A stretch of 64,000 nt of DNA from a virus (IMGVR_UViG_3300015607_004593:1-64000), one strand, 5' to 3'; shown: positions 7,088 through 50,720, numbered from the stretch's first letter. Numbers and translations are program-made. The notes: generated from the letters alone by a model not told the origin.

Positions 7088-8059
7088 TTATCTCATTTTC
7101 AGCATAGCATCTAAATAAGCCTGAATTTTTGGGTCTACATCGCCAGATTCTTTTTCTTGTGTAATGCTTGCCTTTCCTTCATTTAATTGCGTTTGAGATA
7201 TATTTTCTCTTGAAGAAGAATTTGAAGAAGCTGGGACTGTTAAAGATTCTTTCAAAAGGTGAATCTGATTCTTAAATTCTTCTGTAGTCTTAGCCTTTAC
7301 TGTTTCAGAAAGAGTTTGTAATCTTTCTTTATCAATATCCGTTAAATCTCTTGATTCTTCTTCAATAATTAATCTCTTATTCAAATCAGAAACTTTCTTA
7401 GAAAGAGTCTTAACCTTTGTATTTAAATCTACATTTGATTCATAAAGAGATTTTGACTTATCTTCTAATTCAGTAATAAGATTGATGTTATCTTGAGGAA
7501 CATCAATATAATTAGATTCAAATAATCTCTTAAGACCTAAAAGAACTGAATCTGAAATCTGATTCTTAACTCCACTCTCAATTCCAATCTTATTCTCTTC
7601 AACCCACTCATTAATAACATAATCAAGATAAGAATCTAAACGATCTTCCATTTCATCAATTTTCTGTTCTGAAATAAGTTCTAATTCTTGTCTCACATAA
7701 TCAGCATAGGAATCTACAGATTGTTGACTTTCCGTTAAGAATTTATCAACTTTATCCGTCAATCCTTTAACTTGTTCAGATACTTTATTATTGACTGAAG
7801 AATTAAAGATAACTTGAAGTTTTTCTTTTACTTCTTCTGTCAATAATTCATTTCCTGAATCTGAAGCAATTGTTTCAGATATAAGATTTGAATGGTCTAA
7901 AGTATCTGTAGTTTCTACTTCATAGTTCTCTGTGATAAGATGATTTTCTAATTTAGAAAAATTTTCCTCATCAAGAAGTTGAATAAATCTTGTTAAATCA
8001 TTCTTCTTTTTAATAAATTCTAATTGATCCATGTTTCCCTCTTTCCTTCCTTTTTTCAT
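7088..8059 (-). CDS. gp22: Prohead core scaffold protein (gp22-like); start may be Met at 8032
   Basis: LDSYLDYVINEWVEENKIGIE, GLKRLFESNYIDVP; position between gp21 and gp23. Confidence 0.92.
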   Translation of the reverse strand: MKKGRKEGNMDQLEFIKKKNDLTRFIQLLDEENFSKLENHLITENYEVETTDTLDHSNLISETIASDSGNELLTEEVKEKLQVIFNSSVNNKVSEQVKGLTDKVDKFLTESQQSVDSYADYVRQELELISEQKIDEMEDRLDSYLDYVINEWVEENKIGIESGVKNQISDSVLLGLKRLFESNYIDVPQDNINLITELEDKSKSLYESNVDLNTKVKTLSKKVSDLNKRLIIEEESRDLTDIDKERLQTLSETVKAKTTEEFKNQIHLLKESLTVPASSNSSSRENISQTQLNEGKASITQEKESGDVDPKIQAYLDAMLKMR

Positions 8060-8141
8060 AAAAATAGTAAATTTATTTAATAAATTTTTTAAGAAAATAT
8101 GTTATATAAAAAGTATTTATTAAAATTAAAACTGAACTCTA

Positions 8142-8798
8142 TTATAAAATAGAAAGAAATTTGTTGAATTGTAATAACATCTCTTCTTTTGTTTTTTTCG
8201 CAGATTGATGTTTTATAGTCTCTCTATAATCATCTATAAACATTTCTCTTAATAAACCTTGTCCGTCAACAACCCATTCTTTATTTTCTAAGATTCCATT
8301 AACAAAGGCATCTGGTGCAGAAGGTTCATAAACAATATCTGCGGCGGTACAAAGTTTAAAATTGTTTTGAACTTCATTAATTCCATTGATAGTTTTCACT
8401 GAACCTAATGCTCTTGTTGAAACTGCTAATTGAACTCCACCTTCTAAAAGAGCTTGAACAATCAAACCGTCAGGGGTATTTAAAATTCTAGCTTTTCCAA
8501 TCCAATTACATTCACCCTTAGACTTATTTAACATTTCCTCTCTCAGTTCAACAATAAGATGCGATGCCTTTTTCATATCAATAACAGGAGTAGGAGGATG
8601 ATTAAATTCACCTAATGCTCTATTTTTTTTAACCTTAGTTTGAATATATTCATCAATAGGATTTTTTACATTCTCATAGATATATTTTCTTTTGTTTGCG
8701 TTCACAATTCCGGTTTGAATAAACGGCCCAACAAGATAATGAAATTTATTTTCTTGATTGAAAGAAACATCTCTAAGTTGCTCTACGATTAATTTCAT
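8142..8798 (-). CDS. gp21: Prohead protease (gp21-like)
   Basis: GPFIQ...NANKRKY, RALGEFNHP, STRALGS, DIVYEPSAPDAFV. Confidence 0.96.
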   Translation of the reverse strand: MKLIVEQLRDVSFNQENKFHYLVGPFIQTGIVNANKRKYIYENVKNPIDEYIQTKVKKNRALGEFNHPPTPVIDMKKASHLIVELREEMLNKSKGECNWIGKARILNTPDGLIVQALLEGGVQLAVSTRALGSVKTINGINEVQNNFKLCTAADIVYEPSAPDAFVNGILENKEWVVDGQGLLREMFIDDYRETIKHQSAKKTKEEMLLQFNKFLSIL

Positions 8799-9555: not shown

Positions 9556-11166
9556 TCATAATGATTCTTTAGTTGGAGATTGTTCTCCTCCTCCTTCTTC
9601 TTCACTTTCTCCTTCATCTGGTGTTCCTAGCAACGATGAATCATTCTCTTCATCTCCACCAAATAAATCATCTCCACCTTCAGTATTATCATCAGTATTA
9701 TTTTTACTTGATTTATTTTCTTCAATCTCACTTAACATTTGTTCTTTTAGTATTGCAATCTTATCGTCTGTCAATCTTAAAATTTCTTTCCATATAAATT
9801 CTTTTGAAATAAATGTACCTTCTAATTGTTGTGCTTCATTAACCATAGAAATTCTTTCAGAAAGAATTTCTGCATCCTTTAATTCAGAATAATAAGAATC
9901 TCTTTGAAAATCTATAAAGAGAAAAGGTTTAATTCTATACCAATCAGAAGGAGTAATAATTGATTTTAAAATTAATTGCTTTCTTAATAAATCATAAAGA
10001 AAAAGAATAAATTTCTTTCTTTGTTTATCAATAAACCTTGAGAATTTTAATTCTTCTCTAATGATTGCAGAATCTTTTGAAAAAGTAATAGAAGCATCGG
10101 GTTGAAGTCTTGTCAAAGGTACATTTAAAGATTTATATAATTTTTCTCTGAAGTAAGTAACATCATCTAAATTTGAAAGATTTGTTCCTCCTTCTAAAGT
10201 TTGAATTTCTGTAGAACGAGTTCCACCGCGTCTAGGTAGCCAATAATCTTCCATCATTGAAAGTACATTCTTTTTATCAACAATTTCGCCCGTGGAAGGG
10301 TCATACACCATTTTGTTTCTATGCCTTGCAATTTGTTCTTTAAGATATTCATCTGCTTTATTTTTTGGTAAATCACCTGTATCTACATAAAATACTCTTC
10401 TTTCCGGCGCTCTTGCTAGACGATAAATGATAAGAGCCGATTCAATCATAGATAATTGATTTGCAACTTTCATTGATTTATGAAGAGGAGAAAGAATGAT
10501 TCCTGTTTTTGGGTCTACTAGACCTGAATTTGAATAAGCAATAGAATCACAAGAAATCTTAATGTCATTTTGACTATTAAAATCACCTGTTTCCGAATAA
10601 CTAAAATATTCATTAACATGCTTAATAACAGGAACATTCTTTTCATCTAAAACTCTCTCAATAATTTTTATTTTTTTAATAGTGAGAGCATCTAATTGTC
10701 TAACGTCTAAAATACCTGCTTTTGGATTTTTCATATCAATAAGGATATGAAAAAATATTCTTCCATCAACGTACCATCTACGGCAAAAATCATAAGCATT
10801 GTTTTGAAAATCTAAAAGATTTACAAGGTAATCAAATTCCTTTTTTATCTTATTTCTAAATTCTTTTTTATAAGGTAAATCTGAAATAACCAATGAAACA
10901 ATTGGTAAATTTTCTGAAGTAACAATCATTTCATTTATAATTTCTTCTATAGCTCTATCCACTTCAGGTATAAAAGAAAGTTCTCTGTATTTTTTTATTA
11001 ATTCTTTATCTGTTGTTACAGAAGTATTTTGTTCATAAGAAAATATAGAAGATAATGAAGTCCCGAATGATAAAGCGCCAGCATCTTCGTCCTTTGGGAC
11101 AATAGCCTTTAAATCTTCTAATTGATTTTTTTTCGGGTCTTTTATTTCCCAACCTAAAATTTTCAT
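9556..11166 (-). CDS. gp20: Portal protein (gp20-like)
   Basis: RRWYVDGR, IYRLARAPERRVFYVDTGDLPK, EDYWLPRRGG, REELKF. Confidence 0.98.
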   Translation of the reverse strand: MKILGWEIKDPKKNQLEDLKAIVPKDEDAGALSFGTSLSSIFSYEQNTSVTTDKELIKKYRELSFIPEVDRAIEEIINEMIVTSENLPIVSLVISDLPYKKEFRNKIKKEFDYLVNLLDFQNNAYDFCRRWYVDGRIFFHILIDMKNPKAGILDVRQLDALTIKKIKIIERVLDEKNVPVIKHVNEYFSYSETGDFNSQNDIKISCDSIAYSNSGLVDPKTGIILSPLHKSMKVANQLSMIESALIIYRLARAPERRVFYVDTGDLPKNKADEYLKEQIARHRNKMVYDPSTGEIVDKKNVLSMMEDYWLPRRGGTRSTEIQTLEGGTNLSNLDDVTYFREKLYKSLNVPLTRLQPDASITFSKDSAIIREELKFSRFIDKQRKKFILFLYDLLRKQLILKSIITPSDWYRIKPFLFIDFQRDSYYSELKDAEILSERISMVNEAQQLEGTFISKEFIWKEILRLTDDKIAILKEQMLSEIEENKSSKNNTDDNTEGGDDLFGGDEENDSSLLGTPDEGESEEEGGGEQSPTKESL

Positions 11167-11211: not shown

Positions 11212-11219
11212 TATTTATA
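11212..11219 (-). promoter_or_regulatory. T4-type late promoter TATAAATA
   Basis: Exact T4 late consensus about 45 bp upstream of the portal gene. Confidence 0.75.
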
Positions 11220-11242
11220 AAAACATAAACTTAAAGAATTAG

Positions 11243-12376
11243 TTACAAAGTTAAATAGAGTTCTGATAATGAAATTGTTTTTTCTTCCCCACTTTCTATA
11301 TCCTTAACAGTAATATTTGTTTCTTCATGTAGACATTCATCAATAAACAAACAATTATGAACATTCACACCATTGGCAATAAATGAATGAACATCTTTTA
11401 CATCTGTTAAATCAACAACAGTTGTATTTTTATTATAATTTAAATCTATTTCAGAAATGATTGCTTCTGTTGAATGAAGAAGTGTTCCGAAAGATTCTTC
11501 AGGTAAAAATTCACTAGCTTGTTTGAATATCCCAAGTTTTTTATCTTTGATAAGATGGTCTTTTGTGCAAATTAAAGAAGTTTCTTTTTCATTGAAAAGA
11601 AAAGGAAGGAATGAAATTTTTATAACTGGTTTATAAGAAACAGAAAACCCTGAAAAATCTTTGAAACCATCTGAAGTTAAAACTTGATAATCGTTATTAG
11701 GATAAAACCCATTAGGAATAACATCTTTATAATGAGTATCTATAAAATCTCTAATCCTTCCATATAAAATTTTTCCAGGTTTTTTTGAAACCGTTATAAA
11801 AGAATCTATAGAGACACAAGAAATAGGCATACCTCTGATGTTTGAAGAAGAAGATGCAGAAGCTAATACTTTAGAACCATTTTCAAGAACAATATAAGTT
11901 TTTGACCATTCTAAAACTCCCTGTTGAAGAAATTTAGGTAAGTTTTGATAAGCTAACTTTATTCGTGAAAGAATATCAATGGCTGTTGATGCTTTATTTG
12001 CTAAGATTGCTACAGTCTTTGATGAATTAAAAAGGACATAATGAAGTATAAAAATTGCAGAGATTGTTGAATTATGAGAAAGAATATTATTTGTAAAATA
12101 CCTTTCACCTTCTACTGAAATATCAAAACATTCTTTTTCTCCAATACTTTCTACAGAAACTACTTTTGATGAAGAATATAATGAATTATTAATTTTAATA
12201 TTTTTTTCAAAAGAATCCTTTGCAAAAATTTCATCATCATTATCTTGAATAAGTATATGTTCTTCTGCACACTCTAAAGTATTTCCATCCTCAAAAACTA
12301 ATCTACAGGAAGGAATATTAGTTAATTTAATTATAGAATTTAAACATTCAAAACCTGAAGGTGTTAAAATTTTCAT
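11243..12376 (-). CDS. gp17: Terminase large subunit middle fragment flanked by split-intein halves (IntC 102 aa / extein 84 aa / cis mini-intein 155 aa / CLFIDE / IntN 30 aa)
   Basis: Extein STISAIFILHY...AILANKASTAIDILSRIKLAYQNLPKFLQQGVLEW...ENGSKV...IRG...CLFIDE is the gp17 ATPase from just after Walker A Lys to Walker B; intein ends SHN|S and VHN|C; C-terminal CLHEETNITV...ISLSELY. Confidence 0.9.
   Translation of the reverse strand: MKILTPSGFECLNSIIKLTNIPSCRLVFEDGNTLECAEEHILIQDNDDEIFAKDSFEKNIKINNSLYSSSKVVSVESIGEKECFDISVEGERYFTNNILSHNSTISAIFILHYVLFNSSKTVAILANKASTAIDILSRIKLAYQNLPKFLQQGVLEWSKTYIVLENGSKVLASASSSSNIRGMPISCVSIDSFITVSKKPGKILYGRIRDFIDTHYKDVIPNGFYPNNDYQVLTSDGFKDFSGFSVSYKPVIKISFLPFLFNEKETSLICTKDHLIKDKKLGIFKQASEFLPEESFGTLLHSTEAIISEIDLNYNKNTTVVDLTDVKDVHSFIANGVNVHNCLFIDECLHEETNITVKDIESGEEKTISLSELYLTL
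11354..11818 (-). mobile_element. Cis mini-intein in TerL fragment
   Basis: C1 (CVSIDS), block B ICTKDH, terminal FIANGVNVHN followed by Cys. Confidence 0.9.
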
Positions 12377-12414: not shown

Positions 12415-12450
12415 AAAAAAACCTAGAAACTTTTTTGTTTCTAGGTTTTT
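12415..12450 (-). terminator. Intrinsic terminator after tail sheath gene
   Basis: AAAAACCTAGAAAC...GTTTCTAGGTTTTT inverted repeat. Confidence 0.75.
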
Positions 12451-12480
12451 ATTTAAAAATTAAAAACTTTCTTTTTTATC

Positions 12481-14913
12481 TTATAAACCTTCAATTTCAG
12501 TAAATGACATTGAAGAATCTGACCTAACTCCTACAAAGTCCAAATAAATGAAATTGATACTTCTTGATGGTTTAATAGCAAACAAGCTATGGAATTCATT
12601 TCTATCAATAACTTCAGGGCCATTATTATCTGAATCACAAGTAATTCTAAATCCACCCTTTTGAATTCCTCTTCGTGCCTCAACGTCTCTAAAGATAGGC
12701 GTTGTGGTCATTTTGTAAATTTCGCGGGTTGTTTCATCATTGAATTCAAAGAGGAAATATTTTGAAATCTTAGAAACTGCTTTCTTTAGATAAATGAACA
12801 ATCTTCTTACACCAATACGAGAGAAAGCTGAGGGTTTTAAGGTTGTAGTCTTATCACCTAATAAAATAGTTCCTTCTCCCACAAAGGATACAACAGGATT
12901 AATAGATGCTTGATACAAATCATCTCTTTCTCCTGATAACTCTGCACCTGAGAAAGCAACAATACCGAAGTCTGCACCTGGGTTCCATGCTAATTTAGTA
13001 ACATTAGCAACTTTTCCTCTGTTAAATCCGGCTGGCGACCACCAAGGATCGTTTGTATAATCAGTTCGCGCACAAAGACCGGCAATGTCAGGATTTAAAG
13101 GCAACCAATGGAAAGTGTCATTGTATCTATCATATTGATACTTCCATCCTGAATCCATGACTGCATAAGTTGAATCATAACCAACTGCATTTTTATAAGA
13201 AATAACATCTTCTAACTCTTTTCCTCTATTATCTAATACTGCTTCTAAAGGAGGAGAATAGAACATTACACAATCTTGTCTAACTTCAACAACATTAGAA
13301 ATTACCCAATTCACAATAACTGGATTTAGGTATTGTCCCATGATAATTAATGAAACATCAACTGAATTTGGATTTCTGAACAAATAGAATCCATTAATTA
13401 CAGTTGCTAAATTTTCATCATTCAAAGTTCCAATATCATTATCGGAAACCCCTGAAGCTAAAGAAATCTTTGAATAGATGTTATTAGGATTATCATTTGG
13501 GTCTTTTGAAACTTTAACAGTGATAACGTTATCACCTGAAGCAACAGTAGAAATTATTCCAGGAATGATAGTAATCTTATTCAAAGAATTATTTCTTGAG
13601 AATTCAGATTGTTTTAAAATTCTTCTTATACCTGAAGCCTTCTTTTCGTACACAACATCAATATTTTGAAATTGAGATAGAGTTGTAGAAGGTAAAGCTA
13701 CATCATAAGCAGTTGCCGTAACAGCCTTAGTTTCTGCTCTTGTAATTACAATCGTAACAATACCATGCTCAGTTAATCTATCAGCATCAATAGTGAAAGT
13801 ATCACCAGAAAGGTCAACAGTATAATCAGAAGATAAAAGAGTTTCAGGAGTAGATGCTGAATCTCCAAGGAAAGTAACTACAAAGGTATCTCCAGTTATA
13901 ATATCAACTGAAGAAGTAGTATCAACAATAACAGTTTGTGTTGCAACAGGAGTTACATCAAAAGTTAATGTTTTAGTTTGAGTAAATGTTACATTACCGG
14001 ATGCTGAAACAACTTCAGGTTTCAAAAGTAAATTTGAACCAGAAATACTATAAAGAGTAGGTTGAATTGTTGAAGTAGACCCGCCGGTAGGAGTATAGGT
14101 TAAAGCTCTTGTTGCTGCTGTAATAACTGAACCTGCTGTCAAAGCTACCGTAATATCTGTAATAGAAACATTATGAACAATTTGTTTTCCAGAAAGAATA
14201 TCTGAAATATTTTTCTCTCCTACCCAAATATAAGAAGAACCATTATTAATTGCAGTCTTATAATACTTAGATGAACCATCGTATTTTCTTGCACCCGGAA
14301 CAAAAGACAATCCTTCAAATTTTTCAATAATAGAAAGATAAGAGTCTGTTTGCCATTTCTCTCCAGTATCTAAAACTACTAAAGAAAATTCTCCATCGGC
14401 AGGAGGATAATCAAAGGCCGTTTTATAAGCCCAATGAGGGAATGAATATTTATCAGCAATTGAAATAGCAATAGAATTTCCAAGTGCAGAAGGATATTTA
14501 GCAGCAAAAGCTACATTCGCCAACAAACCTGAATTTCTTCTTGATTCAAACTCTTTATCATTTTTAATGATTAAATCTGTAACTGTAGAAACTACTCCAT
14601 CAATAATAACTGCATTTGCATTTCTTGCATTATCGCCAACTAAACGAACAACCTTTAGATTATTACCATAGACAAAGAAATTTGCCATAGTAAAGAAATC
14701 TTGATAAGTTGATTGTTTAGGATTAGTAGTATCAATAGTTGGTTTATAGAACTTTGATACAATATCGTTCTCAGAAAATAAAGAAACTAACTCTTCACAT
14801 CTTCCCCATTCTGAAGCAATAACGGTTGCAGCAGTTGTAGTAGAAATGCTTGGAGAAGAAAGAGAATAATCCTTCTCTGTACTTAAAATACCCGGACTTA
14901 ATAAGTAAGCCAT
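12481..14913 (-). CDS. gp18: Contractile tail sheath protein (gp18-like) with a Thr/Val-rich insertion
   Basis: LLSPGI, DSGWKYQYDRYND, DIAGLCARTD...WWSPAGFNRG, RIGVRRLF, FEFNDETTR, IKPSRSINFI. Confidence 0.97.
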   Translation of the reverse strand: MAYLLSPGILSTEKDYSLSSPSISTTTAATVIASEWGRCEELVSLFSENDIVSKFYKPTIDTTNPKQSTYQDFFTMANFFVYGNNLKVVRLVGDNARNANAVIIDGVVSTVTDLIIKNDKEFESRRNSGLLANVAFAAKYPSALGNSIAISIADKYSFPHWAYKTAFDYPPADGEFSLVVLDTGEKWQTDSYLSIIEKFEGLSFVPGARKYDGSSKYYKTAINNGSSYIWVGEKNISDILSGKQIVHNVSITDITVALTAGSVITAATRALTYTPTGGSTSTIQPTLYSISGSNLLLKPEVVSASGNVTFTQTKTLTFDVTPVATQTVIVDTTSSVDIITGDTFVVTFLGDSASTPETLLSSDYTVDLSGDTFTIDADRLTEHGIVTIVITRAETKAVTATAYDVALPSTTLSQFQNIDVVYEKKASGIRRILKQSEFSRNNSLNKITIIPGIISTVASGDNVITVKVSKDPNDNPNNIYSKISLASGVSDNDIGTLNDENLATVINGFYLFRNPNSVDVSLIIMGQYLNPVIVNWVISNVVEVRQDCVMFYSPPLEAVLDNRGKELEDVISYKNAVGYDSTYAVMDSGWKYQYDRYNDTFHWLPLNPDIAGLCARTDYTNDPWWSPAGFNRGKVANVTKLAWNPGADFGIVAFSGAELSGERDDLYQASINPVVSFVGEGTILLGDKTTTLKPSAFSRIGVRRLFIYLKKAVSKISKYFLFEFNDETTREIYKMTTTPIFRDVEARRGIQKGGFRITCDSDNNGPEVIDRNEFHSLFAIKPSRSINFIYLDFVGVRSDSSMSFTEIEGL

Positions 14914-15039: not shown

Positions 15040-15047
15040 TATTTATA
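15040..15047 (-). promoter_or_regulatory. T4-type late promoter TATAAATA
   Basis: Exact consensus upstream of gp18. Confidence 0.7.
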
Positions 15048-15332
15048 AAATAAAAAAATTAATCTACAAAACTTTAACCAAAGAAAAAACCTAAGAGTTA
15101 GAAAAGATTCTTTATACCTTTTCACTCTTAGGTTTTTGTTTTAAAAAAACCTCAATTCATTTTCTTTTTTTCTATTTAATCTTCTTCCCAAAATCTATTT
15201 TTTACAGAAATTTTATTTTTTGGTTTTTTATAAGGTTCTCTTCGTTCTATTAAAAAATTATCTGAGATATTAAACAAATTATTTTTCTTTTTCTTATCTG
15301 TATATCTACTATTCTTTGGTTTTTCAAAAAAA

Positions 15333-17426: not shown

Positions 17427-19406
17427 TTAAATTATTTCATTTATAGAAGTAAAATTATTCACTAAAGAAAGAGAAAGAATTCTATCCATCTTAGATTCAA
17501 ACAATTCTGATTTATGAGAAATAACAAATATAGAAGTATCTAAAGAAATCCTTTCTAAAAGTCCAATGACAAGTTCTGTTGATTGAGGGTCTAAAGAAGA
17601 ATCAGTAATTTCATCACAGAAAAGAATATTTGCATTTAATGAATTCTTCATCTTGGAAATCTCTCTCCAAGTAAACAACAAAGCTAAATCTATTTTCATT
17701 TTTTGACCATCAGAAAAAGATTCATAAGAAAAATTATCTCTATATCTTGATTTAATAATCTCATTAAAATTTTCATCAAAACGAAAATCAATAGAAAGAT
17801 TTAACTCTTCTAAAAAAATATTTAATAAATTATTAATCTTTGGTAGATATTCTTTTATGATAAGAGTCTTTACACCATCATCTTTTAATAAAAACTGACA
17901 GAACTCATAATAATCAGTTTCTTCTATTAAATTAATTAATTCATCCTTTTTTTCATTTAATAAATTATTTTTAATAAAAATTAATTCTTCTTCTTTTATA
18001 ATATCTACATCTAAAGATAAAGTAGAAGAAGATGTTATTAATTCATTTATAATTGATATATAAGAGTTCTTTTCATTTAACAATCTTTCTTTTAAAGAAA
18101 TAATAGATTTATAATAATCTAATCCTTTAGATACTTCTTTATAAAAAGAGGATAATTCATTTAATGATTCTTCTAAAGAAGAGATATGTTTATCAGTATT
18201 GATTATCTTTTCATTTAAAACTAATAACTTTTCTTCTTTCATTTTATCATTAATAACTTGAGAACAAGTAGGACAAGAATTATTTTCTTTATAGAATAGT
18301 TTTGATTGTTCTAATTTATTCTTCTTATCTATATCTCTATTCTTAGAATAGATAAGTTTATTTTCTTTTTCTTTAAAATTTCTTTCTAAGACTTCTATAT
18401 TACCAAACTTTTGTTCTATATTCTTTAATTCTTGATTCTTTTCTTCTAAAGAAATATCTAAATCTTTTATCTTTTGTTGAAAAAGAGAAATCTTTTCTTG
18501 ATTATTTTCTTTATTTTTTTCTATCAGTAAAAGAGTCTTTTGTATTAACTCTTTTATATAGGATATTTCAGAAGTAAGTTCTTTTATTTCAATCTTTTTT
18601 TCTTTTATTTGTTCTAATAATTCTTGAGATTTATTCTTTGCTGTTTGATTCATCAAAGAAAAAATATCTATATGAAGAAGTGATTCAATAATTTTTCTTC
18701 TATCTGCTTTAGCTAATTTCATAAAAGGAATATAATTTCTTCCTCCTACTACAATAACTGTAGTAAAGGTTTTAAAATCAGTTCTTAATATTTGTTCTTC
18801 TAAGTATTTTTGAAAATCTTTACTCCTAGAATCTTGTTTTAATATGGTTCCATTCTGTTCTATTTCAAACCTTGATGGTTTCAATCCTCTTTTCACTACA
18901 TAAGAATTTCCGAAGCAATCAAACTCAACTTCTACAAGACAATCTTTCTCATTGATAGAATTGATAAGTTGATTTAAATTTACTCCTCTTGTTGTTTTTC
19001 CAAAAAGACAAAAAGTTAAAGCTGTATGAATAGAAGAATTATGAGAAAGGATTCCATTAGAATAAAATCTCTTTTCTTTAGAAGCTAAAGAAACATCATA
19101 CATTTCTTCTTCTATTCCTAAATTTTGAACATAAATTACTTCTTCTATTCCATTTTTAGTTTGGATTGCTGATTCAAAAGGAACTAAGTCTTTTACAAAG
19201 ACTTCATTCATAAAATGATCAAATACAATATGATTATCAGCACATTCAATAAAAAGTCCTGATTCAACTACTATTTTATATTTTTTATAAGGAATAGTTT
19301 TATGAACGTAATCTATATCCACCCAACCTTCATCGGTTTCTATTTCTAAATCTTCTAATGAAAAAGAAGAGGTAAATTTTCTTTCAATTGAATTTGATAG
19401 GGACAT
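17427..19406 (-). CDS. gp46: gp46 (Rad50/SbcC-like ATPase), C-terminal piece preceded by a 123-aa IntC
   Basis: IntC ends FYSNGILSHN|S at 19038; then ALTFCLFGK, LINSIN, CPTC zinc hook, FSDGQKMKIDLALLFTWR, CDE Walker B, VISH. Confidence 0.95.
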   Translation of the reverse strand: MSLSNSIERKFTSSFSLEDLEIETDEGWVDIDYVHKTIPYKKYKIVVESGLFIECADNHIVFDHFMNEVFVKDLVPFESAIQTKNGIEEVIYVQNLGIEEEMYDVSLASKEKRFYSNGILSHNSSIHTALTFCLFGKTTRGVNLNQLINSINEKDCLVEVEFDCFGNSYVVKRGLKPSRFEIEQNGTILKQDSRSKDFQKYLEEQILRTDFKTFTTVIVVGGRNYIPFMKLAKADRRKIIESLLHIDIFSLMNQTAKNKSQELLEQIKEKKIEIKELTSEISYIKELIQKTLLLIEKNKENNQEKISLFQQKIKDLDISLEEKNQELKNIEQKFGNIEVLERNFKEKENKLIYSKNRDIDKKNKLEQSKLFYKENNSCPTCSQVINDKMKEEKLLVLNEKIINTDKHISSLEESLNELSSFYKEVSKGLDYYKSIISLKERLLNEKNSYISIINELITSSSTLSLDVDIIKEEELIFIKNNLLNEKKDELINLIEETDYYEFCQFLLKDDGVKTLIIKEYLPKINNLLNIFLEELNLSIDFRFDENFNEIIKSRYRDNFSYESFSDGQKMKIDLALLFTWREISKMKNSLNANILFCDEITDSSLDPQSTELVIGLLERISLDTSIFVISHKSELFESKMDRILSLSLVNNFTSINEII

Positions 19407-19473: not shown

Positions 19474-19716
19474 TTATCTATTTTTATTTTGTATATGATT
19501 TTGTTTTGCATATTCATATAGTTCTCCAAGAGACACAGTGAAAAGTTCTAATGTATTTTTATTTCTTATAGTTACTAACGTATTTTTATCTAAGCATTTT
19601 CCAAATCCATTTGTTCCAAAGATTGCTGTTTTTGAAACCTTATCTAATTCTATTACTGATGGAATGTTCCCAAAAGAAAGAAAATTTTTAATGCTTAATT
19701 TTTTAAAGTGTATCAT
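19474..19716 (-). CDS. gp46: gp46 N-terminal piece (40 aa) plus 40-aa IntN
   Basis: FKKLSIKNFLSFGN...GTNGFGK (Walker A) | CLDKNTLVTIRNK...VSLGELY. Confidence 0.93.
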   Translation of the reverse strand: MIHFKKLSIKNFLSFGNIPSVIELDKVSKTAIFGTNGFGKCLDKNTLVTIRNKNTLELFTVSLGELYEYAKQNHIQNKNR

Positions 19717-41433: not shown

Positions 41434-42927
41434 TTAAGTTTCTGTCTCTTCCCAATAATCAGTATTTTCATCTTCATCATTTTCATCTTCACTATTAGCT
41501 AAAACAGCACCATAAAGAAATTTAGTTGAAATTATTTTATCTAATTTTTCCATAAGGTCGTTTGTAAAAAATAATTCAGGATTTCGATTGATTTCTTTTT
41601 TGAAAACCTTCTTATCTGAAGAAGGAAAAATAAATCTATTACCTACAGACTTTACTAAGTCTGCTGAAACCATTTCATCTAAGATACCATGATAAAGAGA
41701 GAGTCCTGAAGAAAAATTGATAAAAATATCAACAGTAGAACCTTCTCTCGTAAACCTAGATTTTTCCATCTTACAATGGACAATGTTTCCTACAAATTCA
41801 GTTCCTTCTTTTTCTTTTCTTTTTGAAAGTAAACAAATAGTTGATGAAATATATTGTCCACCTGAATTATGAGAAAGTACACCATTAGAAAGAATATAAT
41901 GATGACCATCCTTTACTTCAATATCGTAGACTTCATTTCTTCCAATACTTTCAATTTTTATGATTTGAGCATTTTCATTATAAAGAGTATCCTTCGTATC
42001 TAAGTAGATTCCTTCCTTTAAATCCTTTGCTTTTATCCAATCTCCTTTGAATCTAAATTTGTGTTTCTTACTACAAACAATCGTTGAATCATCAAAAAAT
42101 GTAAGTCTGATACAATCTGGATTTGGTTCTATTAATGTAGAAGGATTCCAAACAGTAGAAACTTTACTAGCCCCATATTCAGTTTGAACTAAATCTCCCT
42201 CTTGAATTTCTTCAATACAACGAAGTGTCCCATCAGCCATTAAAATTTGAGTACCTTTCGATAAACATCCACCACCTACAACAGCTTGAGGGTAAAGTCC
42301 ATTTTGAGACATATAAATGTGATTAGTAACAATGAAAGGAACATTTAAAATTCCAAGTTTTAAAGATATGACCCTAAAGATAGATTTGATTAATTTTGCT
42401 CTTGTCATATCTTGAGTTTCTTTTCCTTCCGTTGAATCACTTACTTCCTTTACTGTAGAAAGATTTCCTAATGAATCTAAACAAATAAACAATTTTAATT
42501 CTTCTCTTTCTTTCTCAGGAATTTTTTCATATTCTTCTAATATTTGAATAGTTTGAAATCTTAATTCTTGGGCAGTAAGAATTGGACAAAACAAAACCCG
42601 TGAGGTATCAATTCCAAAATTTTCCATGGTGTCTTTTCTTTGAGCGGATTCAGTTTCAAAGAAAACAACATTTGCTTTTGGATACGTTTTTAAAAACCTT
42701 GAAATCATTGTTAGAAGAATAAAAGATTTCCCAACCCCAGGTGGCCCTGCAAGCATTGAAACTTTATTATCAGGAAATCCCTTAAACATTGAACCTGAAA
42801 TAGCAGCATTTAATAAGAAAGAGCCGGTATCAATAAACCCTGAAAGGTCGCCAACAATTCCATCTGACACAACTGAAGAATTTTTATTTCCAATCTTCTT
42901 TTGAACCATCTTTAGAAATAATGACAT
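41434..42927 (-). CDS. uvsX: UvsX/RecA-like recombinase with mini-intein
   Basis: IDTGS, AGPPGVGKS, DSLGNL, DMTRAK, VTNHIY, KSRF. Confidence 0.96.
   Translation of the reverse strand: MSLFLKMVQKKIGNKNSSVVSDGIVGDLSGFIDTGSFLLNAAISGSMFKGFPDNKVSMLAGPPGVGKSFILLTMISRFLKTYPKANVVFFETESAQRKDTMENFGIDTSRVLFCPILTAQELRFQTIQILEEYEKIPEKEREELKLFICLDSLGNLSTVKEVSDSTEGKETQDMTRAKLIKSIFRVISLKLGILNVPFIVTNHIYMSQNGLYPQAVVGGGCLSKGTQILMADGTLRCIEEIQEGDLVQTEYGASKVSTVWNPSTLIEPNPDCIRLTFFDDSTIVCSKKHKFRFKGDWIKAKDLKEGIYLDTKDTLYNENAQIIKIESIGRNEVYDIEVKDGHHYILSNGVLSHNSGGQYISSTICLLSKRKEKEGTEFVGNIVHCKMEKSRFTREGSTVDIFINFSSGLSLYHGILDEMVSADLVKSVGNRFIFPSSDKKVFKKEINRNPELFFTNDLMEKLDKIISTKFLYGAVLANSEDENDEDENTDYWEETET
41866..42267 (-). 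mobile_element. UvsX mini-intein (134 aa)
   Basis: GGG|CLSKGTQILMADG ... CSKKHKF ... NGVLSHN|S. Confidence 0.95.
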
Positions 42928-49094: not shown

Positions 49095-49326
49095 ATTCTA
49101 TCCATGTTGAACGGTCTGAATCTCTATTCTTCTTTTCTAAAATTCTTATATAACACTTAACGACTGTATTGGATTCATGAGGCATCATTACATCTTTCCA
49201 ATAAAAAAATCTTTCTTTTCTTAAAAAGAAATTTAAAATTTTTTGAAAAAAGGTAAATTGTTTCTCTTGAGCAACAAATAAAGTTTTATCACAATTTGAT
49301 ATAATTCTATATTGTTTTCTTTTCAT
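49084..49326 (-). CDS. Hypothetical protein inserted between gp44 and gp62
   Basis: ATGA overlap with gp44. Confidence 0.6.
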   Translation of the reverse strand: MKRKQYRIISNCDKTLFVAQEKQFTFFQKILNFFLRKERFFYWKDVMMPHESNTVVKCYIRILEKKNRDSDRSTWIEYES

Positions 49327-50720
49327 TTAAATCTTACCTCAGAAAGAATTTCAGTCAAACAAGCTAATAGATTGATTGATTTATCCATCATTGATGGGTG
49401 TCTAAATTCATATTGAGCTAGAGCTAAAATTATAGCAGGTAAACACTCAGGTTGTACAACTGATTTTAATTCTTTATAAAAATTTTTATAGAACATTTCA
49501 AAATTCATGTCTGAATTTTTTTCTACCCACTCTACTATTGAGTTAAATCTCTTTTCTTTCATAAAGAAAAGAATATCTTTAAAATCTAATTCTTTAGAGT
49601 AAGTTAAGAGTCCTTCATCAATCTTTCCTGAAATAGAATACTTTTGTAATTCATTTATAATTCTTCTAAAATCAGGAAAGTATCTATTGATTAATTCAAC
49701 AACCACTTCTTTTTTAAATTCAATATTCTCATTCTTTAAAATATCTTTAACTCGGTGAAAGAATTTTGTTTTTAAATCCTTATAATCTTCTTTAGGCCAT
49801 GTAAAGTCTATCACAGAACACCGTGAAAGAAGTTGAGGCATCATCTTCTCGATATAATTACAAGAGAAGAAAAATGTTATTTTTGAGTATTGTTCTATGA
49901 ATCCTCTTAAAGCCGTTTGAGTAGGCATAAGCATAGCATCACATTCATCAAAAATAACAGCCTTTGACCTTCCTTCTAAAGAAAGTGTAGTTACAAACGA
50001 AGTAACATCTTGTCTCAAAACTTCTATTGACCTTTGTTCAGAAGAATTGATAAAGAGATATTCAAAATCTAATTGATTACAGAGGGCTTTGATGCAAGTT
50101 GTGTTGTGATGAACAAATCCATTAGGCGTCACATAAAGATGGGGACTTTCGATAGAAATATCATAAACATCTCCAAAAGGAATTTCTTCTTTATATACAA
50201 TCTTTGAAAAATCACCAAGTAAAACATTATAAACATCTTCTGCTTCTTCAGCAAAAACAAGACCTTTAGATGAAGAAACAATATGTTTTCTTCCACAAAT
50301 AAAAGGATTCAAGTCATCATTAAAATGTAGTTTTATTTTTTTATCTTGTTTCTTAATCAATCCTTCTATTGGAACCCAAACATTTTCAGGAGTCTTTACA
50401 AAAACCTCTTCTTTATCAAATTCCTTTAATTCATTATAAGGAACTTCATCCATTTCAAAATAACTGAATAAATGTTCTAATGTAACTGTTATTTCTTTTC
50501 CTTTATAAAATTTATCTGAAAAAATAATATCTATTTCTTCAAACGGGTCTAAACATTTTCCACTTCCACCATTCGGTGAAGAGAACATTAGATTTGGACA
50601 ATGACCTGAGATAACAAAATTTTCAAGTGTTTTTTTAATAGCTTCAGGAAAAATACAATCTTTAATTTGTTTAGGGCGATACTTTTCTACCCAAATACGT
50701 TCATTAAGATTTACAGACAT
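49323..50720 (-). CDS. gp44: Clamp loader ATPase (gp44-like) with mini-intein
   Basis: WVEKYRP, GSGK|..|TT, FDECD, LSRC, FPDFRRIINELQ. Confidence 0.96.
   Translation of the reverse strand: MSVNLNERIWVEKYRPKQIKDCIFPEAIKKTLENFVISGHCPNLMFSSPNGGSGKCLDPFEEIDIIFSDKFYKGKEITVTLEHLFSYFEMDEVPYNELKEFDKEEVFVKTPENVWVPIEGLIKKQDKKIKLHFNDDLNPFICGRKHIVSSSKGLVFAEEAEDVYNVLLGDFSKIVYKEEIPFGDVYDISIESPHLYVTPNGFVHHNTTCIKALCNQLDFEYLFINSSEQRSIEVLRQDVTSFVTTLSLEGRSKAVIFDECDAMLMPTQTALRGFIEQYSKITFFFSCNYIEKMMPQLLSRCSVIDFTWPKEDYKDLKTKFFHRVKDILKNENIEFKKEVVVELINRYFPDFRRIINELQKYSISGKIDEGLLTYSKELDFKDILFFMKEKRFNSIVEWVEKNSDMNFEMFYKNFYKELKSVVQPECLPAIILALAQYEFRHPSMMDKSINLLACLTEILSEVRFK
50103..50555 (-). mobile_element. gp44 mini-intein (151 aa) in Walker A
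   Basis: GK|CLDPFE ... CGRKH ... VYDISIESPHLYVTPNGFVHHN|T. Confidence 0.93.

Follow-up and report, generated by a model that had tools for sequence, protein, structure and literature searches.

The locus

The window analyzed here is a 64,000-nt stretch of DNA (IMGVR_UViG_3300015607_004593:1-64000) forming the start of a 221,970-bp virus record with a G+C content of 28.6%. The record is that of a T4-like myovirus, and CheckV rates the genome as complete. On the minus strand, an open reading frame (ORF) of 377 aa at positions 11243-12376 is flanked by the portal gene (9556-11166) and the tail sheath gene (12481-14913). It consists, in order, of an intein C-half (IntC(a)), a segment of the terminase TerL as extein, a contiguous mini-intein (intein b), the extein hexapeptide CLFIDE, and an intein N-half (IntN(c)).

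All five elements are encoded on the minus strand. IntC(a) (aa 1-102; 12071-12376) carries a block B His40, a block F Asp85, and a terminal His101-Asn102; it sits at a P-loop site, SRQTGK/S (slashes mark splice junctions), and its C-terminus, ILSHN, is followed by Ser103. The TerL extein segment (aa 103-186; 11819-12070) starts at the Ser/Thr that follows the Walker A lysine and stops just short of Walker B. It aligns with residues 166-257 of T4 gp17 (E = 3e-18) and is also matched by Pfam Terminase_6N and PHROG 5989. Intein b (aa 187-341, 155 aa; 11354-11818) begins with CVSID, ends with VNVHN, and is followed by Cys+1. The hexapeptide CLFIDE (aa 342-347; 11336-11353) is the Walker B motif, aligned to IYIDE in gp17, and IntN(c) (aa 348-377; 11246-11335) begins directly after the Walker B glutamate, at IDE/C, and ends at the stop codon. 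Once intein b is left out, the extein comes to 84 + 6 = 90 aa (9850 Da as a linear chain). An earlier note on this DNA had recognized an IntC-extein-IntN order with halves of 30 and 102 aa around a 90-aa extein; that topology, from HN/S103 to IDE/C348, is present as it described, and the lengths are exact.

Intein b should splice in cis. It shows an intein fold in AF2 and Foldseek analyses, it is missing from 11 homologous middle pieces, where the sequence runs uninterrupted, and contiguous inteins occur at the same site in two further sequences (L004 and L013). When the AF2 model of the entire ORF was submitted to Foldseek, the matches were the VidaL, gp41-1, and Cat inteins and the gp17 ATPase; such a search confirms folds and is blind to a circularly permuted intein completed in cis. 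The C-terminal junction of intein b is only six extein residues (CLFIDE) away from Cys1 of IntN(c), and steric hindrance by the folded intein b may hold up trans-splicing at site c for as long as intein b is in place, which would put the reactions in a fixed order.

A terminator-like hairpin is located between the sheath gene and the ORF at window positions 12419-12452 (CCTAGAAAC ... GTTTCTAGG plus a T run, minus strand), so the ORF may rely on its own promoter or on read-through. Counting both strands, the 222-kb genome contains just 8 copies of the T4 late-promoter octamer TATAAATA, including those at 11218-11225 and at about 15040-15050, upstream of the portal (-53) and sheath (-134) genes, respectively. 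A scan of the whole genome placed no exact TATAAATA upstream of any of the three TerL pieces described below.

Residues 1-101 of IntC(a) align with positions 17-111 of CatC (PDB 6dsl_B; E = 1e-5), and residues 4-102 align with positions 30-128 of the contiguous gp41-1 intein (E = 6e-7), indicating that IntC(a) corresponds to an intein minus its first ~29 residues. The 30-residue tail of the ORF, IntN(c), has the length and pattern of the segment that IntC(a) is missing. Both halves are conserved: His40, Asp85, and Asn102 of IntC(a) are invariant across 16 homologues, with His101 conserved, and IntN(c) is kept in 15-16 homologous middle pieces, with an invariant Cys348 and a conserved hairpin-plus-helix pattern.

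Partner pieces elsewhere in the genome

A phmmer search over all six-frame ORFs of the 222-kb genome recovered two further TerL pieces, both outside the window. The N-piece (122 aa; genome positions 195196-195564, minus strand) reads ...SSRQTGK and then continues into a 36-aa IntN(a) (CVSGETKITIKD...). The C-piece (856 aa; genome positions 188378-190948, plus strand) begins with a 117-aa IntC(c) (...EFISKN), which is followed by CAFIPS. It also holds a fourth, large intein (intein d) that ends in GHQ, with a C-terminal Gln, and is followed by Thr+1. IntC(c) matches CatC (E = 5.5e-6) from the same CatC starting position as IntC(a), and the penultimate His is absent from its C-terminus, EFISKN. 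The two IntCs are 32% identical. The two IntNs are identical at 16 of 29 positions (55%) and share their hydrophobic positions; IntN(a) falls within the sequence cloud of site-c IntNs, as near as the orthologous IntNs of other phages. Differences between IntN(a) and IntN(c) include a one-residue insertion in the loop, Ile/Glu at hairpin position 17, and Leu/Ser at position 22.

Judged by their sequences, the halves at the two ends of the ORF are parts of two different, putative atypically split inteins, of the same type as AceL-TerL, GOS-TerL, and Cat. The fold and motifs of this type are found in both IntC(a) and IntC(c), and the split falls at the expected position, with IntNs of 30 and 36 aa and blocks B, F, and G in the IntC. 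Atypically split inteins have been described with an IntN of about 25-37 aa containing motif N1 only and an IntC of about 100-122 aa (PMC2677866). The ORF halves (30 + 102 = 132 aa) are also comparable to those of Cat, which measure 30 + 104 aa (PMC11766414).

Terminase profiles span the pieces consecutively: the N-piece accounts for positions 90-171 of PHROG 5989 and the ORF for positions 158-266. Joining the five extein blocks in silico gives a protein of 534 aa in which Walker A (SRQTGK-ST) and Walker B (LFIDE-C) are both intact, and residues 5-530 of this product align with residues 8-538 of a contiguous 551-aa TerL at 45% identity (E = 6e-159). A tblastn search of the genome with this 551-aa TerL matched only the three genes, in colinear, essentially non-overlapping blocks. 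No other TerL copy was found in the genome by tblastn or with PF03237. The extein between Walker A and Walker B is 59-62% identical to contiguous TerLs over the same stretch. The presence of both partners, their colinearity, and the lack of a second TerL together identify the ORF as the middle member of a three-piece terminase with four inteins.

The TerL pieces map to 11 kb, 188 kb, and 195 kb on both strands, a spread of ~184 kb, and each of the three genes has its own start and stop codon, as in fractured genes (Dassa et al. 2009). We also considered whether the pieces could be pseudogene debris and rejected this on the basis of the intact reading frames, the conserved catalytic and Walker residues, the status of this TerL as the only one, and the CheckV-complete genome. 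Transposase-like ORFs (PHROG 506 / 13964 / 12300) are located between the C-piece and the N-piece at genome positions 191714-192745 and 193903-194415, both on the minus strand (also numbered L089:5714-6745 and 7904-8416), and the C-piece is on the strand opposite to its neighboring genes. These two observations suggest rearrangement as the process that dispersed the TerL pieces.

At least seven inteins are present in five proteins of this phage, gp46 included. The gp46 intein, the third one in this phage with an atypical split, served as a comparison pair: the N-piece (19477-19716, minus strand) has a terminal 40-aa IntN, and the C-piece (17427-19406, minus strand) has an initial 123-aa IntC (ILSHN/S) that is 34% identical to IntC(a). 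UvsX (41434-42927, minus strand), an ORF matched by the IntC(a) query at E = 5e-9, carries an intein after ..VVGGG, and the gp44 clamp-loader subunit (49323-50720, minus strand) has an intein directly after its P-loop GSGK.

Net charges of the intein halves

The earlier note had counted 7 D/E versus 2 K/R in IntN(c) and 18 versus 9 in IntC(a), and for gp46 4 versus 6 in IntN and 23 versus 11 in IntC (net +2/-12); all of these counts are exact. From them it had proposed that like charges prevent the ORF from cyclizing itself and that both missing partners should consequently be basic. With the partners in hand, the prediction proves right for IntC(c), which has 15 D/E versus 22 K/R (net +7), and wrong for IntN(a), which has 9 versus 4 (net -5). 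In this phage, the cognate net charges (IntN/IntC) are -5/-9 for pair a, -5/+7 for pair c, and +2/-12 for gp46. Cognate pair a thus has the same charges as IntN(c) x IntC(a), the cis pair, and a block on the latter cannot stem from like net charge: if like charge barred association, the P-loop intein could not work either.

The same picture emerges from other phages, where cognate net charges are +1/-17 (L093 a), -1/-10 (L093 b), 0/-10 (L098 c'), and +3/-16 (L003 a); the second IntC of L098 has a net charge of -15, and its matching IntN lies off the contig. Opposite net charges are seen in pair c and gp46 and are not seen in pair a, L093 b, or L098 c'. When the three IntNs and three IntCs of this phage are arranged as a 3x3 table that includes gp46, a rule based on charge only disfavors one true pair and favors two wrong ones: IntN(a) x IntC(c), which would bypass the middle piece, and gp46 IntN x IntC(a).

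Among the middle pieces with sites a and c (n = 16), IntC(a) is acidic in 15 and neutral in one, and IntN(c) is acidic in 15. The 53 candidate site-c IntCs, which were chosen by regular expression and probably include a few false junctions, comprise 41 acidic and 12 basic sequences (median net charge -6), so the basic IntC(c) of this phage is not typical of its class. The family norm is an acidic IntC with an about neutral to acidic IntN, and in the other three-piece phages co-resident pairs lack charge contrast. Net charge is not the selectivity code between co-resident halves.

Occurrence in other phages

Middle pieces with the IntC-extein-IntN layout were present in 20 of the 120 protein clusters listed, 16 of them with halves at sites a and c and four with halves at sites a and e. 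In L093, the three TerL pieces (sites a and b) follow one another, separated by free-standing ORFs. L098, a 2.5-kb fragment, contains a middle piece, free-standing ORFs, and the start of a C-piece, with the N-piece off the contig. In scans of IMG/VR, most matches were TerLs that are contiguous or in two pieces, and none was an a/c middle piece; the N-piece used as a query recovered only 5 relatives.

None of the cultured-phage records covered at least 80% of the ORF. In the Serratia phage vB_SmaA_3M (Ackermannviridae, NC_048736.1), a tblastn match to ORF residues 3-191 (36% identity) lies within a single annotated TerL gene of 735 aa; from the gene annotation, we read this match as a contiguous P-loop intein.

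Discussion

We consider it probable that the ORF encodes the middle of three polypeptides that together form the only TerL of this phage, and that its two intein pairs are selective without the use of a net-charge code. At site a, IntN(a) of the N-piece, encoded ~184 kb away, would combine with IntC(a) and join the P-loop; at site c, IntN(c) of the ORF would combine with IntC(c) of the C-piece, with ligation occurring just after the Walker B glutamate. These two trans reactions, together with two cis reactions (intein b in the ORF and intein d in the C-piece), would yield the 534-aa TerL. We infer that both pairs splice and that each pair ignores the other. Their selectivity most likely stems from how the ~30-aa IntN hairpin and helix fit into IntC bodies that are only 32% identical. 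In this phage, charge may provide a kinetic aid, in that the acidic IntN(c) would be taken up faster by the basic IntC(c) than by the acidic IntC(a).

The order of the halves in the ORF is that of SICLOPPS constructs, in which an IntC, an extein with a +1 nucleophile, and an IntN with Cys1 are present in one chain. The difference is that SICLOPPS uses both halves of one intein, whereas the ORF halves come from two inteins with different sites and with partners encoded elsewhere. The SICLOPPS-like order would then be a side effect of having two split sites in one gene and not a device for making rings. Another parallel is engineered three-piece ligation with the gp41-1, IMPDH-1, and NrdJ-1 inteins, where the middle fragment is likewise flanked by the IntC and the IntN of two pairs (PMC11168065). 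Engineered middle fragments require orthogonality between those pairs to avoid mis-ligation and cyclization (PMC11168065). The ORF differs from the engineered sets in being natural and in having both pairs from one atypical family, with IntNs that are 55% identical.

Three other readings of the locus were considered. The alternative offered by the earlier note, a natural intein-made cyclic protein, here taken as a functional product with a cyclic backbone that is the purpose of the ORF, draws on the order of the halves, Ser+1, and Cys1, all of which are as cyclization needs. We regard it as extremely unlikely, since the extein, with 59-62% identity to the matching stretch of contiguous TerLs, is the indispensable part of the only TerL between Walker A and Walker B, and since both cognate partners exist and bear the flanking parts of TerL. 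Homologous middle pieces with an IntN at other TerL sites, always colinear with TerL, also argue against a ring as the purpose of the gene. That acidic like charges on IntC(a) and IntN(c) evolved against self-cyclization, with cognate halves recognizing one another by opposite charge, is somewhat less remote and still very unlikely. Pairs c (-5/+7) and gp46 (+2/-12) fit this idea, IntC(a) and IntN(c) are each acidic in 15 of the 16 a/c middle pieces, and canonical split inteins do carry opposite local charges on their halves and use this local complementarity (PMC2677866). However, cognate pair a (-5/-9) cannot be told from the cis pair by charge, two wrong pairs would be preferred, both IntCs of L093 and of L098 are acidic alongside available IntNs that are about neutral, and 41 of the 53 candidate site-c IntCs are acidic. 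Furthermore, the halves of atypical TerL inteins are reported to associate via clustered hydrophobic residues, according to a review that cites Stevens 2018 on this point (PMC11766414).

The reading that comes nearest to the preferred one is that orthogonality is imperfect: IntN(c) docks with IntC(a), within one chain or between chains, a certain amount of 90-aa by-product, cyclic or concatenated, is tolerated, some N-piece-to-C-piece mis-ligation is allowed as well, and enough TerL is made regardless. We consider this unlikely, though clearly more credible than the two readings above. Cross-reaction between the halves, cis cyclization included, is chemically plausible from the sequences because the IntNs are 55% identical, with equal net charge, and because cross-reactivity has been reported for split inteins: an engineered IntC of the S1 type works with IntNs that share only 40-50% identity with its native one (PMC3443213), and the GOS-TerL and AceL-TerL IntNs are interchangeable according to a review (PMC11766414). 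In L091, the site-a IntN is identical to the first 30 residues of the site-c intein at 17 of 30 positions, which gives no hint that IntNs of one genome are selected to diverge. In P-loop ATPases, the Walker A lysine and the Walker B glutamate are neighbors at the ATP site, which would presumably allow the two ends of the extein to meet. In the AF2 model of the ORF (mean pLDDT 77.6, pTM 0.44), IntN(c) is ordered (residues 351-377, pLDDT 76-86); however, the junction segments are of low confidence, with pLDDT <50 for residues 343-350 and for both splice-junction segments of a 230-aa homologue (P0007, pTM 0.48). Other considerations point toward tighter selectivity: the layout is widespread and conserved in many phages, which argues that any losses are small; the IntCs are only 32% identical; and the acidic IntN(c) should go faster to its basic cognate IntC(c). 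That IntN(c) and IntC(a) actually react in infected cells to release a cyclic or concatenated 90-aa ATPase-core fragment beside full TerL strikes us as very unlikely, a little more so than the charge-based reading. If true, it would represent a natural intein-made cyclic protein, possibly with its own role, for example in titrating TerL assembly.

With the preferred reading of a three-piece TerL, the closest known relatives are AceL-TerL and GOS-TerL with their consensus Cat (PDB 6DSL), and the "Terminase" fractured gene of Dassa et al. 2009 (PMC2677866), which share with the ORF both a T4-like TerL host and an atypical split. The insertion sites are not the same: those of this phage are the P-loop (GK/S) and Walker B (DE/C), whereas the AceL-like IntNs of L053 and L070 follow ..QEYN and ..EFE and precede CEFLGS-type sequence, far downstream of the phage sites. 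We take this far-downstream position to be the native AceL site in TerL. A second difference from the AceL-TerL type is that two such inteins are present in one phage gene, so that one chain bears an IntC together with a non-cognate IntN.

In the part of the intein literature that we covered, we found no description of a natural IntC-extein-IntN protein, which is a weak indication of novelty. As far as we know, previous descriptions of a middle fragment that combines the IntC of one intein with the IntN of another concern constructs engineered for three-piece ligation. The natural versions reported here are many, occur in an essential phage enzyme, and use split inteins with very short N-halves (30-36 aa). 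If co-resident pairs ignore each other, they would constitute ready-made, co-evolved orthogonal pairs for peptide-protein ligation, and IntNs that are 55% identical yet orthogonal would narrow the determinants of specificity down to a few residues. If the pairs cross-react, the phage would have to tolerate or make use of a cyclic by-product. Either way, a net-charge rule is not the code, and this matters for choosing or designing orthogonal atypical inteins.

In the fractured genes described previously (Dassa et al. 2009, PMC2677866), a free-standing endonuclease gene separates two halves on the same strand; the TerL pieces of this phage are dispersed, use both strands, and lack such an endonuclease gene in the intervals. 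Free-standing ORFs do occupy the gaps in the relatives L003, L093, and L098; in L003, this is a 432-aa ORF (L003:3251-4549) between the IntN and IntC halves. Directly upstream of its site-a-fractured TerL, the same IMG/VR relative also has an intein-free, truncated TerL-like ORF of 232 aa (L003:2098-2796). In L010, a 145-kb IMG/VR contig, the IntC of a two-piece TerL (L010:2923-4695) is broken by a frameshift or stop after aa ~80, reflecting either a sequencing error or a decaying intein. In the metagenome contig L091 (L091:8554-9954), the site-a IntN runs in frame, with no stop, into a C-terminal extension of ~270 aa with zinc-finger-like CxxC motifs, which may represent an IntN fused to a gap endonuclease.
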